DNA from: Pedobacter sp.
GTDB lineage: Bacteria; Desulfobacterota; Desulfuromonadia; Desulfuromonadales; Syntrophotaleaceae
Direction of reading: 5' to 3'
Assembly: GCA_050253415.1 (NCBI GenBank)
Contig: JBFWJC010000001.1
Span: 256,001-320,000, forward strand
DNA: 64,000 nucleotides
In this document: positions 16,286-22,907 of the stretch, piece after piece
Position numbering within the stretch: the stretch's first letter is position 1
Layout: every line of letters begins with the position of its first letter
Translations under genes and position numbers: made by a program
Notes under the pieces: model-generated
Database searches by the model: none
What the model was told of the DNA's origin: nothing
The model's input: the letters and a program-made list of their open reading frames with translations, nothing else

Positions 16286-16361
16286 GCCCAGATAGCTCAG
16301 TCGGTAGAGCAGAGGACTGAAAATCCTCGTGTCGGCAGTTCGATTCTGTCTCTGGGCACCA
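16286..16361 (+). tRNA. tRNA-Phe (GAA)
   Basis: 76 nt. GCCCAGA/TCTGGGC acceptor stem, D-arm AGCTCAGTCGGTAGAGC, anticodon loop CTGAAAA, TTCGA T-loop and encoded CCA. Confidence 0.97.
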
Positions 16362-16362
16362 T
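16316..16362 (+). repeat. att site (tRNA copy, 47-bp direct repeat)
   Basis: ACTGAAAATCCTCGTGTCGGCAGTTCGATTCTGTCTCTGGGCACCAT, identical to 22861-22907. Confidence 0.95.
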
Positions 16363-16369
16363 AAATATC

Positions 16370-16402
16370 AAGGGGTTACGGCGTTTGCTGTGACCCCTTT
16401 TT
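16370..16402. terminator. Element-supplied terminator after tRNA-Phe (convergent with the integrase)
   Basis: AAGGGGTTACGGC/GCTGTGACCCCTT stem followed by a T-run. Confidence 0.6.
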
Positions 16403-17480
16403 ATATTTGTGCTTGAGAGACGTGAACTAATCGTGAAGTGGATTTTTCAGAGAGGGCGTGGTTCAGAAGGTCAACCGCTGCCACTTTATGAGAAGGGGCA
16501 AGGTGCGCATAGCGCAGAGTCATTGATAGAGTCTTGTGCCCCATCAGTTCCTTTACAGTAGTAATGTCCACGCCTGCCATAACCAAGTGGGAGGCAAATG
16601 TATGTCGCAGGTCGTGAAAGCGAAAATCTTTAATACCGGCCCTTCTACAGGCTGAGTAAAAAGACTTTTTTACGTCTCCGTACCGCTTACCAGTTTTAGG
16701 ATTGAAGAAGACATAGGGTACGTCGATTCGTCTGATCTGCGACTTCAAAACCTTCAGAAATGCTTCGTTTATCGGTATCTCCCTTCTCTCTCCATTTTTT
16801 GTTGTGTCCAGCAGGATGAAGTTGTGACGAAGGTCTATATTCTGTTCCCATTTCAGGGTCAGAATTTCATTCTTACGCATTCCCGTATTTAGTGCAGCAA
16901 TGACAATTGGTTTAAGGTGAGGGTCGCAGGCTTTGATAAGTTCTTGAGTCTCTATTGCTGATAGGAAGCGTAACCGACGGTTATTTTCCTGTAGCAACTT
17001 AACCTTTCTGGTCTTTTTTAAAACCTCCTCTTCTACCATTTCCCATTCTTCGGCTTTGGTGAACATGTGTTTCAGCGTAGCTAGTAGACGGTTGACCGTC
17101 GCGGGTTTATTGAATTTCAGTCTTTCTGTTTGGAATTGCTCAATTTGCAATGTGTTAAATTGCCGTAGTGGCAGGGGCCCAAAGGTGTCAACCAATTGTT
17201 TGATTTTGCGAGCTTTAGTTTTAAATGCTTTCTGACGTTCGCACCATGGTAAATATTTTTCAGCAAGTTCGCTGAACGTGTAGTTTTTTATCTTTTTTAT
17301 CTCAGGATTCTTCCCCTCCATAAGCATTTGCCGGTTTTTGGTAAGAATCGCCTGAGCTTCTTTGAAGTTCGTTGTACCTGAGCTTTTACGAATCGTTTTT
17401 CCGGCAAGGTTTTGGTAGGCAATCCAATAATTTTTACTATCAGGTCTTTTGTAAACCCCCTGAGTCCGAGTTCGTGCCAC
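16401..17480 (-). CDS. Tyrosine recombinase/integrase
   Basis: Intact catalytic residues: TGMRKNEI, TKNG, HDLRH, LMGH and RYAH. Likely GTG start at 17480 with AAGGAG RBS (the ORF track uses TTG 17498). Confidence 0.95.
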   Translation of the reverse strand: MARTRTQGVYKRPDSKNYWIAYQNLAGKTIRKSSGTTNFKEAQAILTKNRQMLMEGKNPEIKKIKNYTFSELAEKYLPWCERQKAFKTKARKIKQLVDTFGPLPLRQFNTLQIEQFQTERLKFNKPATVNRLLATLKHMFTKAEEWEMVEEEVLKKTRKVKLLQENNRRLRFLSAIETQELIKACDPHLKPIVIAALNTGMRKNEILTLKWEQNIDLRHNFILLDTTKNGERREIPINEAFLKVLKSQIRRIDVPYVFFNPKTGKRYGDVKKSFYSACRRAGIKDFRFHDLRHTFASHLVMAGVDITTVKELMGHKTLSMTLRYAHLAPSHKVAAVDLLNHALSEKSTSRLVHVSQAQI

Positions 17481-17691
17481 TCGTGTCTCCTTTTCCAATA
17501 ACAGGTTCGTTGGTTAGGTCCTTCGCAATATAGTCCATTAAAAGTTGGAGCGTTGTACTTGGTTTTTTCACCCCCTTTTCCAGCATGTACACGTAGTTCT
17601 GACTAACGCCCAGTCGTTCCGCCAACTGGGCTTGAGTTAAACCAGCGCTTTTCCTGAAACTTTGAATATCTTCTGGAGACCACTTATCCAT
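17440..17691 (-). CDS. Small XRE-family HTH protein
   Basis: RKSAGLTQAQLAERLGVSQNYVYMLEKG...PS; overlaps the integrase start. Confidence 0.85.
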   Translation of the reverse strand: MDKWSPEDIQSFRKSAGLTQAQLAERLGVSQNYVYMLEKGVKKPSTTLQLLMDYIAKDLTNEPVIGKGDTSGTNSDSGGLQKT

Positions 17692-17697
17692 GGTTTA

Positions 17698-17726
17698 ATT
17701 ATACCCTAACTGAGTTAGATTATCTA
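17698..17726 (-). promoter_or_regulatory. Promoter of the HTH-integrase unit with an internal palindromic operator
   Basis: TAGATA-N17-TATAAT with the ATG 7 nt after the -10. The palindrome CTAACT-G-AGTTAG (17706-17718) lies in the spacer. Confidence 0.6.
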
Positions 17727-17806
17727 ATAGTTTCTAGGTTCACGTTTTGCTTCACATGCTACAGTATGTAAGCGAAATTACATGATGTTTTTGGTGGATC
17801 TGGGGA

Positions 17807-20642: not shown

Positions 20643-21045
20643 TTTGTTCCCATAGCAAACTTTCAGAAAAATCTTTACGAAGTACAGCATAGCTGAAAAA
20701 TGAGATAAAAAAAACCCTTTTTGCGATTGGCCTAATCGTAAGTTTCGGAATTTCACCGATGTGAAAAATAACCATGATTACCAATACTAAAAATAATTAC
20801 TACTAAATTAATTCAAGATCCTACATTAGAATATTTGACCAAACATTTATTAAGTAGTATCTAAATGAATATTTTTATTTCAGATAAGGAAGGGGGAAGG
20901 AGACTAGTGGACATGTCGGTTCCCTTTAACCAGAGGCCTTCAAGTAGTCACGACCAAAAGGTTAGAATACTTTCACATAATATCTGTTTGTTAATATCAA
21001 GAATGGCTCTTCGTATTTGTATGCACAGAAAGGGGATAAAGTTTT

Positions 21046-21861
21046 ATGAAAACCTTGGTTTTATTTATATTGGTAGTTGTTATTTTAATGGGTTGTGACG
21101 GAAAACAAAAAGAAATAGAGCTGTTGGATAAAATCCAAAGTTTAGAAAGTCAATTAGACGAGTGCCAAAATGGAGCAGATAAAATTCATGCTCAAATGAA
21201 ATTGTCATATGAAAAAAAGGACTATGAATTAACTAAAAATCTCTTTAAAGAAATGGAAAAAAGACACGCTGAGTCAGAACTTTTTGCAGAATCTAAGACC
21301 TTATACGAAAAAATAATAAAAATTGAAAAGGAAAAGGAACTAGAGGAAAAAAACAGAAAAGAGAGAGAGAAGCAACAGAGGTTGAAAGCTCTCGATAAGT
21401 TAGATAAAAAATACGACGACGTTGATGATATAACTTGGTACAGGAATGGTCTTTTTACTCACTATGTTGATTCTAATCTTACATCAATATATATCGGACA
21501 TAAAAAAAATTCAAACTGGCTTGTTTTGCAAATGTCATATGGGGGTGAAGACTGGATTTTTTTTGACAGAGCTTTTCTTTCTTATGATGGCAATACTAAA
21601 GAAATTAATTTTGATAAGTACAGTGAGAAAAAAACCGAAAACAGCGGTGGTGTAGTTTGGGAATGGATAGTCACCCTTGTGGACTCAGATACAGAATCAT
21701 TCTTACGTGAATTTTCCAAATCTAATAATGCAAAAATGCGGCTTACAGGAAAATATACTAAGACAAGAAATCTTAATAAGAAAGAGAGACAGGGGATAAT
21801 AGATGTGCTAAATGGTTACGATGTTTTAAAGGAAGAGAGTGGTATGAAGGATGTTCTTTAG
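21046..21861 (+). CDS. Cargo lipoprotein 1 (coiled coil plus globular domain)
   Basis: Signal peptide II MKTLVLFILVVVILMG-C, AAGGGG RBS, AT-rich. Confidence 0.8.
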   Translation: MKTLVLFILVVVILMGCDGKQKEIELLDKIQSLESQLDECQNGADKIHAQMKLSYEKKDYELTKNLFKEMEKRHAESELFAESKTLYEKIIKIEKEKELEEKNRKEREKQQRLKALDKLDKKYDDVDDITWYRNGLFTHYVDSNLTSIYIGHKKNSNWLVLQMSYGGEDWIFFDRAFLSYDGNTKEINFDKYSEKKTENSGGVVWEWIVTLVDSDTESFLREFSKSNNAKMRLTGKYTKTRNLNKKERQGIIDVLNGYDVLKEESGMKDVL

Positions 21862-22023
21862 GTATTAGCTGGAAATCGCGACATTCAAAATTTTTGAAAT
21901 GTCAGCTCTTGACTAAATAGTTTTAAAGATTACAGTAGTTATTAAATTAAGTAGCATAGCAAAATTTTGTATACCTGAATCAAAAAAGCTTATGCGTTTA
22001 TATTATATGAAATTGGAGTGGTT

Positions 22024-22437
22024 ATGTACAAGACATTGTTTCTAATTCTAATTGTTGTTCTGTTTGTTGCATCTTGTGGAAAAATTGGTTCAATAATTTA
22101 CAAAACCGACATTGAAAAAGTAATATATAGTCATTACAAGGTCACTGAAGAAGCTTATGTATTGAAGCCAATTTATTCCAATCCAAAATACGAATGGCCA
22201 GTTCCAATGATAGACTCAAAAGAAGACTTTGAGATAACGGTTATAAAAGTTGTTAAAAATGAACATGGAAATTATAAAAGAATGGCATTTGTTAAGATAA
22301 ATAACATAATTAATAATATGTCTTGGATAAAAAAATTGTCACAGCAGAAAAATGGAAAATGGGAAGTAGATTTAGGCCAAAGAATTGAAGATACGGAAGC
22401 CGAAATAGCAAAGGCTAGTAGGCTTGGTCGTATCTAA
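22024..22437 (+). CDS. Cargo lipoprotein 2
   Basis: Lipobox in MYKTLFLILIVVLFVAS-C; GGAG RBS. Confidence 0.75.
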   Translation: MYKTLFLILIVVLFVASCGKIGSIIYKTDIEKVIYSHYKVTEEAYVLKPIYSNPKYEWPVPMIDSKEDFEITVIKVVKNEHGNYKRMAFVKINNIINNMSWIKKLSQQKNGKWEVDLGQRIEDTEAEIAKASRLGRI

Positions 22438-22519
22438 AACTTATAGATTAAGGTAACCGTTTTTCATTTTTCAATGTCCCTTGCTTGTATTTTGGAAATG
22501 GTTAAAAGAATTTATGCAA

Positions 22520-22703
22520 ATGAGAGCCAAGTTATTTTTTTGATTACCGTTTTCTCTGCCTTTTTGGGTGGGTGTCCACTTTTCGTCGGGTAACTCGGAC
22601 ATTTAACGTTTCGTTTGATACAGTCTGGTCAACGATAATTTAACAAGAAGCAGAAGCTATTGATTGGGTCATTTGGGATGGTGTTGCAAAGCGTACTTCA
22701 TAA
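22520..22703 (+). pseudogene. Possible decayed third lipoprotein gene
   Basis: With frameshifts it reads MRAKLFF/LITVFSAFLGG-C/...TRTFNVSFDTVWSTII*. Confidence 0.35.
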
Positions 22704-22860
22704 TTGTTAGTCCCCTAGTTTTCCGTGAAACAAACGTGAACCTGACAAGCCATAATGAAGGGGAACCGGTCCCAAACTCGGTTCCCCTTCATAGGGCCAT
22801 TCTTTTAGAAAACCGAAATCTTCCCACTAAAACATAAAGTTTTTTGCCCTCCTTCTGGTA

Positions 22861-22907
22861 ACTGAAAATCCTCGTGTCGGCAGTTCGATTCTGTCTCTGG
22901 GCACCAT
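22861..22907 (+). repeat. att site (distal copy of the tRNA-Phe 3' half)
   Basis: Identical to 16316-16362 and lacks the tRNA 5' half. Confidence 0.95.

Follow-up and report, generated by a model that had tools for sequence, protein, structure and literature searches.

Small genomic islands with an integrase but without transfer genes abound, and most of them are unexplained. Here we describe such an element in a 64,000-nt stretch of bacterial DNA (the window; part of contig JBFWJC010000001.1, assembly GCA_050253415.1). It is inserted at a tRNA-Phe gene and encodes a tyrosine integrase together with a rolling-circle initiator of the Rep_trans family (Rep). The order of the host is most likely Desulfuromonadales, formerly in the Deltaproteobacteria, since some of its genomes share their structures with named Geopsychrobacteraceae records.

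Several described systems resemble the element in part. The satellites RS1 and TLC of Vibrio cholerae filamentous phages, as well as CTX-type inoviruses, share with it a Rep_trans-family initiator and XRE-type regulators. Like the element, RS1 and TLC have no morphogenesis genes, and their dependence on a filamentous helper is the mode that we propose for it. RS1 and TLC are described, in abstracts and matched passages, as integrating at dif through the host recombinases XerCD, as integrative mobile elements exploiting Xer (IMEX) do. The element has instead its own PF00589 integrase, a Xis-like protein, a tRNA-Phe attachment (att) site and a cargo bay. No co-resident helper was found, and the element's Rep is less than 30% identical to theirs: RstA or 'putative replication protein' records of Vibrio filamentous phages match at 29% identity over 56% of the query. 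Because of its own integrase and the tRNA site, the element is not an IMEX.

Phage-inducible chromosomal minimalist islands (PICMI) of Vibrionaceae have a comparable layout. The passages matched in PMC10803314 describe about six genes in a small island: an integrase gene, a small gene overlapping it, an AlpA/HTH_17 regulator (PF05930 or PF12728), one replication gene and a defence gene as cargo, with rolling-circle-like replication. All of this recurs in the element or its family. According to the same passages, PICMI encode a DUF3987/DUF5906 primase, integrate next to fis and use a virulent tailed phage as helper. The element has Rep_trans in place of the primase and tRNA-Phe in place of fis, and so departs from two defining features of PICMI.

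Two streptococcal integrative mobilisable elements (IMEs), IME_Sga2069_rpmE and IMESag-rpsI, are likewise small and combine a tyrosine integrase with a Rep_trans-family protein, as listed in the matched part of PMC5704250. Unlike the element, they have Firmicutes hosts and sites in ribosomal protein genes, and their mobilisation by integrative conjugative elements (ICEs) is proposed or shown. 'Streptococcus satellite phage Javan276' (MK448393.1) shares the order small ORF, Rep-like, small ORF, Int, with 25% identity between the Rep proteins. Its Rep-like protein is annotated 'Cro/CI family transcriptional regulator' which, judged from the annotation alone, would fit a helix-turn-helix (HTH) domain joined to PF02486. 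The streptococcal Rep_Trans elements differ from the window's in host phylum, Rep architecture and relatives.

RepSTK1 of the Geobacillus stearothermophilus plasmid pSTK1 (PDB 4CIJ) and the pT181 family have the same two domains as the element's Rep, Rol_Rep_N and Rep_trans. The tyrosine motif RxYxK aligns between Rep and 4CIJ, Rep is 29% identical to the pSTK1 record, and the staphylococcal RepDE structures match the Rep profile weakly (E 0.007–0.008). While pSTK1 and pT181-type plasmids are autonomous Firmicutes replicons of 1.9–4.5 kb without an integrase, the window's element is chromosomal and carries its own.

In the literature searched, by way of listings, abstracts and matched passages, no filamentous-phage satellite is described that combines Rep_trans with its own integrase and a tRNA site, in Desulfuromonadales or elsewhere. 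The family is apparently undescribed, in agreement with the original prediction, which had suggested an undescribed family in deltaproteobacteria.

A discrete foreign element at tRNA-Phe

The element is bounded by two 47-nt direct repeats that are 100% identical and spaced 6545 bp apart (Table 1). The repeat core extends from the anticodon loop of the tRNA to one base beyond its 3' end, comprising the last 46 nt of the gene plus 1. The tRNA gene, the only one that ARAGORN finds in the window, remains intact. In three genomes of the same genus (G001, G006 and G003), an alignment shows tRNA-Phe directly joined to the sequence that follows attR in the window, with right-flank identities of 95%, 87% and 79%, respectively. 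The three empty sites give the same junctions as the window, and the boundaries of the element are biological. The sequence between the repeats has a GC content of 0.387, versus 0.56–0.59 in the flanks and 0.529 in the whole genome. A hairpin with a T-run, brought by the element, takes the place of the native tRNA terminator, which adjoins the tRNA in the empty sites and now lies beyond attR.

The element is a discrete, foreign unit with precise boundaries. The original prediction had listed the repeats, an integrase, a Xis-like protein, Rep_trans, a coupled hypothetical gene and two XRE regulators. All of these were recovered, the domain assignments through Pfam and PHROGs. Also supported is its view of an integrative element, acquired recently, whose modules for integration and rolling-circle replication are intact.

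The integrase retains the catalytic residues R, HxxR, H and Y, as read from the translation. Its likely start is GVG at 17480, giving a 41-nt overlap with the gene of the small XRE regulator. The HTH_17 protein is a candidate recombination directionality factor or activator, judging from its domain. The Rep profile matches RepSTK1 over both domains (residues 9–253, E 1.3e-51). The motif RIYDK contains the candidate catalytic Tyr170, and Y170, D171 and K172 are invariant in the alignment. In the pT181-family literature the tyrosine of this motif is the catalytic residue. Rep looks intact on the basis of its sequence, none of the five core genes is interrupted by a stop, and the window's genome contains a single Rep_trans gene. 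The 131-aa ORF upstream of rep (hyp131) has no family in Pfam, PHROGs or PADLOC; in the Atlas it has only chance-level matches (best 0.82) and a low-confidence helical model.

The second XRE regulator has 209 residues from a GTG, or 171 with an ATG start at 20642. It has no peptidase domain and is specific to the window's copy. Two lipoproteins complete the gene set. The 271-aa protein matches Atlas clusters of 275–286-aa lipoproteins (score 0.95–0.97, TM score 0.79–0.86) and belongs to a widespread unnamed lipoprotein family; no relatives of the 139-aa protein were identified. Neither has a match in Pfam, PHROGs or PADLOC, or to a known defence model.

Among the eight element proteins, Pfam and PHROGs give no match to capsid, terminase, coat, Zot, type IV secretion system (T4SS) or coupling-protein families, in line with the original prediction. 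The Pfam search included Zot PF05707, Coat_B, DUF2523 and primase families. A coat-like protein is also missing among 12 further ORFs of at least 25 aa that lie mostly outside the eight called genes. The best of these (39 aa, 22474–22593) has a single hydrophobic stretch and is not coat-like.

Four sequencing runs were examined as assembled Logan contigs. In X1, the likely source run, the element forms a separate 6,557-nt unitig with a depth of 49.2, and its flanks have depths of 53.6 and 61.9; each contig has a single depth value, from which copy number cannot be read. Runs X2 and X3 cover the flanks but not the element; as no contig spans the site, they were not used as evidence. No attP or attB joint was listed among the contigs. 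An Rfam scan gave nothing above threshold except the tRNA.

Table 1 Features of the element and its insertion site, in window coordinates
Feature	Position	Strand	Support and remarks
tRNA-Phe(GAA), target gene	16286..16361	+	ARAGORN; Rfam RF00005, 70.6 bits; intact after integration
attL core, 47 nt	16316..16362	+	100% direct repeat
Hairpin with T-run, element-borne	16370..16399	+	terminator-like site; inverted repeat I1
Tyrosine integrase	16401..17498	-	PF00589 1.7e-34; phrog_1 1.2e-72
Small XRE/Cro-CI type regulator	17440..17691	-	HTH_3 5.7e-12; 3' end overlaps int
Promoter-like site before small XRE	17698..17726	-	TATAAT 17703-17698; 10 of 12 matches
HTH_17 (MerR/AlpA/Xis-type) protein	17807..18136	-	PF12728 1.3e-12; phrog_66 'excisionase and transcriptional regulator' 6.9e-9
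GC-rich hairpin just 3' of rep	18191..18257	-	inner 9-bp stem 18198-18228, 13-nt loop
Rep_trans rolling-circle initiator with Rol_Rep_N N-terminal domain	18281..19210	-	PF02486 2.8e-37; PF18106 7.7e-9; phrog_453
131-aa ORF (hyp131)	19207..19602	-	4-nt overlap with rep; no family above cut-off
Terminator-like hairpin in hyp131-rep operon leader	19875..19890	-	
Best sigma-70-like promoter in the element, facing hyp131-rep	19965..19993	-	TTGACA-17-TATTAT, 11 of 12 matches
Second XRE regulator, CI-like	20127..20756	-	HTH_3 9.8e-16; Phage_CI_repr 2.1e-4
271-aa lipoprotein (cargo)	21046..21861	+	signal peptide, lipobox ..ILMGC read from translation
139-aa lipoprotein (cargo)	22018..22437	+	signal peptide, lipobox ..FVASC read from translation
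Perfect 14-bp inverted repeat I2, 10-nt loop, near attR	22755..22792	+	
attR core, 47 nt	22861..22907	+	100% direct repeat
Native tRNA terminator, displaced	now 22916-22946		native hairpin adjoins tRNA in empty sites

A rare family with a constant core and a variable cargo bay

We searched 233 genomes of the window's order and, in a phylum-wide sample, another 400. The Rep profile exceeds 270 bits in 4 of the 233 order genomes, namely the window's own (G000), G014, G182 and G183, and in no genome of the additional 400. Exactly these 4 of 233 genomes also have integrases with 71% identity or more to the window's (G014 80%, G182 72%, G183 71%). Integrases with 45–50% identity (42–48% by tblastn) lie at other tRNA genes and come without the other core genes.

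The four members, found in two bacterial families, have the same gene order at the tRNA-Phe att sequence: (small ORF)-Rep-HTH_17-small XRE-Int. A search for this order in relatives had been called for by the original prediction. The core of about 3.2 kb is located next to the tRNA, with the variable cargo bay beside it. The att sequence is the same in all members apart from one mismatch in G014; copies of it bound the G182 member, and G183 and G014 have two each. The tRNA-Phe gene is directly beside int in the window, G014 and G183, and a copy of the att core is found at that place in G182. The G182 copy (6.86 kb) is cleanly bounded by the same repeat, the G183 copy has 19.5 kb between att copies, and the G014 copy is split across two contigs.

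Between the window and G014, identity falls with distance from att, from Int (80%) through the small XRE (61%), HTH_17 (48%) and Rep (44%) to the small ORF (31%). The small XRE protein and the HTH_17 protein are kept in 4 of 4 members, at 56–61% and 32–48% identity, respectively, and the small XRE gene overlaps int in the window and in G014. The hyp131 homolog of G014 (31% identity) matches with E 7e-16. The ORFs at this position in G182 and G183 have only 16–21% identity, so family-wide homology of hyp131 is not established.

The non-coding DNA of the members has in common, as long words, only the promoter and palindrome before the small XRE gene. The palindrome CTAACTCAGTTAG (17718–17706, minus strand) is just upstream of TATAAT, and the XRE ATG follows 7 nt downstream of this box. 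Three members have exactly the same 22-nt run at this place, TCTAACTCAGTTAGGGTATAAT, and G014 departs from it at one base. The arrangement suggests that the palindrome and the TATAAT box form an operator on a leaderless XRE-int transcript. Upstream of hyp131-rep, a near-consensus promoter is followed about 75 nt on by a terminator-like hairpin (19875–19993, minus strand), which could be a short regulatory RNA or an attenuator. Compared to shuffled sequences, neither promoter-like sites (20 found, 16.5 expected) nor terminator-like sites (8 found, 5.9 expected) are enriched in the element.

The GC-rich hairpin just 3' of rep has a DNA fold z of -3.06, with 1 of 200 shuffles as good. Its counterpart in G183 reaches -4.13, and those of G182 (-0.92) and G014 (+1.32) are not significant. 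From its position and fold, the hairpin is a candidate double-strand origin or terminator and no more. An origin search by blastn gave no similarity between the window and G014 outside the int-XRE region.

The cargo, on the side away from int, is different in every member. The window's copy carries the two lipoproteins and the CI-like XRE gene. G014 has a type I restriction-modification system (HsdM 3.6e-137, with HsdR near attR), and G182 a MarR-type gene with a 643-aa SF1-helicase-like protein. G183 has MarR and WYL genes, Wadjet type III genes with matches to JetA, JetC and JetD, and the PDC-S46 and PDC-S73 genes. The last two encode large candidate-defence proteins (L284:3289–7867; 5.4e-267 and 1.7e-36, respectively). 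In G182 and G183 the MarR-type gene takes the position of the window's second XRE gene. Lipoproteins as the only cargo, stated in the original prediction, describe the window's copy and not the family, where defence systems occur elsewhere. Across the family the core stays constant, while the cargo bay varies and mostly holds genes of the defence type. None of the four members has Zot, coat, capsid or T4SS genes: the element belongs to a rare conserved family that never carries morphogenesis or transfer genes.

The family is rare in larger collections as well. A large protein collection contains only four proteins 47–52% identical to Rep (P0002–P0005), on metagenome contigs of 1.5–5.1 kb, and the next relatives follow at 33%. 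The family Rep profile exceeds 230 bits for only six of 1.84 billion cluster representatives. A scan of genome contigs with the single Rep protein found nothing, and a single metagenome scan with Rep gave nothing above 36% identity. A FastTree phylogeny built from 188 Rep sequences groups the four members found in genomes with the four metagenome proteins as a single clade, with a support of 99.

Relatives of Rep and the search for a helper

To place Rep among its relatives, we used a context set of 48 Rep ORFs from 46 loci, each flanked by 6 kb or more at either end. A Zot-type ORF lies within 10 kb in 34 of 48. This is a tendency, and the figure overstates the independent support because Nitrospira copies are numerous among the 34 and some loci, fetched from two collections, are present both as metagenome and as genome entries. 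All 33 distinct Zot ORFs pass the Pfam cut-off. The 14 relatives without Zot include two members of the window's family and two mini-elements of Geopsychrobacteraceae. The Rep lineage is tied to filamentous phages, as the original prediction had proposed, and this is supported by the neighbouring genes.

Nitrospira genomes hold several copies of tRNA-integrated filamentous prophages (L034:9672–17584; also L021, L030, L029, L043, L045 and L041). Their order is HTH_17-Rep-(ORFs)-Zot-RadC-Int, followed directly by tRNA-Lys or tRNA-Arg, and their integrases are 31–37% identical to the window's. HTH_17, Rep_trans of the same radiation and a tyrosine integrase adjoining a tRNA are shared with the element, so that both of its core modules occur together in complete tRNA-integrated filamentous prophages. 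The differences are Zot and putative structural ORFs between rep and int, RadC, and the tRNA targets; in the window's family nothing separates rep from the Xis-XRE-int block. A CxxCxxCC-domain (PF03692) gene is found just outside the integrated element both in the window (23001–23525, plus strand) and at the Nitrospira locus (L034:17632–18396, minus strand), probably by coincidence.

Such complete tRNA-integrated inoviruses, with relatives of both Rep and Int, and a size within the inovirus range are what one would expect if the element were a decaying filamentous prophage, an immobile deletion remnant that has lost its structural genes. We consider this highly unlikely. The att repeats are perfect, and the five core genes are free of stops. 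The same structural-gene-free core is present in four genomes of two families, with conserved regulatory DNA and different cargo; in addition, the site is empty in three genomes of the genus, and the strongly foreign GC content argues against long residence.

Closer to the host, genomes of the same order carry inoviruses with Rep mini-elements beside them. In one Geopsychrobacteraceae chromosome (L008:3367–13414), a repeat search found five identical direct copies at 2,437-bp spacing, each comprising a 133-aa ORF, Rep_trans and two small ORFs, without Zot in the locus. Tandem Repeats Finder, with a longest period of 500, missed this array, which has the appearance of a mini rolling-circle replicon repeated in tandem in the manner of RS1. 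The 2,437-bp array also occurs in G187, a genome of the same order in which two Zot loci are found at other places. At L009:3716–10924, a complete inovirus block (Zot, DUF2523, Coat_B, Rep_trans) adjoins a 140-aa ORF and a Rep mini-element of the L008 type; these neighbours may be a helper-satellite pair. From their sequences, the small ORFs upstream of rep in these mini-elements look like a different family from hyp131.

More distant relatives are found in other phage-like and plasmid settings. Clostridial relatives of Rep, the nearest from Firmicutes (31–33% identity; L003, L005 and L007), lie in small units of Int, CI or M78-XRE, SSB, Rep_trans and amidase; these clostridial/Firmicutes units look like small temperate phage-like elements rather than ICEs. 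Among named phage records, 125 have Rep relatives, 77 of them 'Vibrio' and 32 'Affertcholeramvirus', mostly with CTX-type RstA. Named matches also come from a streptococcal 'satellite phage', from small viruses without classification and from plasmids of Firmicutes, pSTK1 among them; every match in a named record stays below 33% identity.

We favour, at a little less than an even chance, the reading that the element is an inovirus-derived integrative rolling-circle "hitcher" spread by a filamentous-phage helper. It would be an inovirus-derived replicon that has no morphogenesis block and carries cargo instead, since the relatives of both core modules with known context are true filamentous prophages. 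A filamentous helper is preferred because Rep_trans replication yields single-stranded DNA (ssDNA) circles of the kind such phages export, and because the lineage is inoviral. The XRE regulators would keep the element silent. On induction, Int and the HTH_17 protein would recombine the 47-nt cores, whose boundaries are defined by the empty sites. This would release a 6,545-bp circle and restore the junction of tRNA-Phe and terminator seen in relatives. Rep, by analogy to its family, would then nick an origin, possibly the GC hairpin 3' of rep, and start rolling-circle replication to single-stranded circles. The element presumably cannot leave the cell alone and would be exported by the assembly machinery of an infecting or co-resident filamentous phage, before re-integrating at tRNA-Phe.

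Several observations weigh against this reading, in addition to the repeated Nitrospira loci among the Zot-linked relatives. The family clade of Rep (8 rows) sits on a long branch, and the next node holds 106 rows. Of the phylogeny asked for in the original prediction, an own clade was obtained and a resolved sister group was not. No packaging signal or origin was identified, and only two of the four members have a significant hairpin 3' of rep. Excision, the circular form, ssDNA and transfer are here a matter of inference. Zot is absent from all four host genomes, of which G000 is 100% complete by markers (18 contigs), G182 and G183 are single contigs and G014 is 75% complete. At its att in G182, moreover, the element stands in tandem with a podovirus-like prophage of 34.7 kb that uses the same site, suggesting another kind of helper.

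The helper, a filamentous phage or an ICE according to the original prediction, was found in neither form. The window's genome has no Zot, VirB4, PF02534 VirD4-type coupling protein, HK97 capsid or Terminase_6N, and VirB4 is absent from 4 of 4 hosts; PF02534 was searched in the window's genome only. Helper absence is weak evidence either way, because metagenome-derived host genomes may miss unbinned episomes. Two further genomes of the order, both with Rep mini-elements, do have Zot, which indicates that filamentous phages infect this order.

A helper may also be unnecessary. As an integrative rolling-circle plasmid, the element would be a small episome kept by re-integration and moved by transformation, vesicles or generalised transduction. 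The lack of any helper in the window's genome and of Zot and VirB4 in the other three hosts agrees with this, as do the plasmid initiator RepSTK1 as the closest Rep of known structure and the relatives of Rep in 105 plasmid records. We nevertheless find it decidedly unlikely. The same core at the same att with different cargo in two families implies efficient horizontal movement, the relatives with known context are mostly viral, and genes for partition or copy control are missing.

The tandem arrangement in G182 brings in a type of helper that the original prediction did not consider, a tailed phage, which is possible. At this locus (G182:C1:3705404–3746961; L286, L287 and L273), three tRNA-Phe att cores bound the podovirus-like prophage and the 6.86-kb Rep element; the prophage has genes for terminase, major head, portal and tail tubular proteins. 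The element could then be a minimalist tailed-phage satellite of the PICMI type, helper-induced and replicating by rolling circle, with a concatemer packaged in helper capsids and cargo that protects the host. The layout in the matched passages of PMC10803314 fits: the window's HTH_17 is PF12728, the small XRE gene overlaps int in the window and G014, and the relatives' cargo is defence (type I restriction-modification, Wadjet JetA/C/D, PDC-S46 and PDC-S73). The gene order of Javan276 can be added. We rate this alternative as unlikely. Rep_trans normally gives unit-length ssDNA, which is not a headful or cos substrate, and the G182 element has no DNA similarity to the neighbouring prophage. 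A tailed prophage adjoins only 1 of 4 members, and tRNA genes are general integration hot spots. In addition to the missing capsid and terminase families, the window's genome has no homolog of the structural proteins of the G182 prophage.

The architecture of Rep bears on a further route, in which the element is an IME: Rep would serve as a MOBT-like relaxase on an oriT, and transfer would go through the T4SS of a conjugative element. The one candidate for such an oriT is the hairpin at 18191–18257. Rep_trans proteins include MOBT relaxases, streptococcal IMEs with a tyrosine integrase and Rep_Trans are listed in the matched part of PMC5704250, and the passages of PMC6499999 give RepSTK1 as the closest solved structure to the relaxase RelSt3. 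The element's Rep has the PF02486 domain with the conserved tyrosine, as MOBT proteins do, and 82 of the 105 plasmid records are typed 'mobilizable'. According to those passages of PMC6499999, RelSt3 has an N-terminal HTH fused to PF02486, and NicK-type members are without the HTH. The N-terminus of the element's Rep is instead PF18106 Rol_Rep_N (7.7e-9), with no HTH family. MOBT is described, in the passages matched, as a Firmicutes family using FtsK-like coupling proteins. Besides the absence of VirB4 and PF02534 reported above, the window's genome has only a marginal match to the PF10412 TrwB P-loop (21.1 bits, 733-aa ORF), and around relatives of known context the accompanying genes are Zot or phage modules rather than conjugation genes. 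This is the least likely route and very improbable; the Rol_Rep_N terminus, like that of RepSTK1, and the viral relatives make the ICE/MOBT route of the original prediction the weakest option.

Meaning for satellites and their hosts

The element is a clean minimal case of an island without transfer genes: it has five core genes and exact boundaries, relatives show the empty site, and cargo differs among the four members. It is also small enough for testing gene by gene.

In its widest form, the reading of an inovirus-derived element with a filamentous helper would make the family a new class of filamentous-phage satellite. Such satellites would have their own tyrosine integrase and tRNA att in place of XerCD and dif and would retain from inoviruses only the rolling-circle and integration modules, the freed space serving as a bay for defence or surface cargo. 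They would act as ssDNA 'defence shuttles' riding inovirus particles between families of the order. We regard this wider proposal as doubtful.

If the helper is indeed an inovirus, the range of phage satellites that bring an integrase and defence cargo of their own would widen to the world of ssDNA filamentous phages, and to anaerobic sediment bacteria, where mobile elements are little studied. A tailed-phage helper would mean that the layout of minimal satellites emerged once more, now with another replicase.

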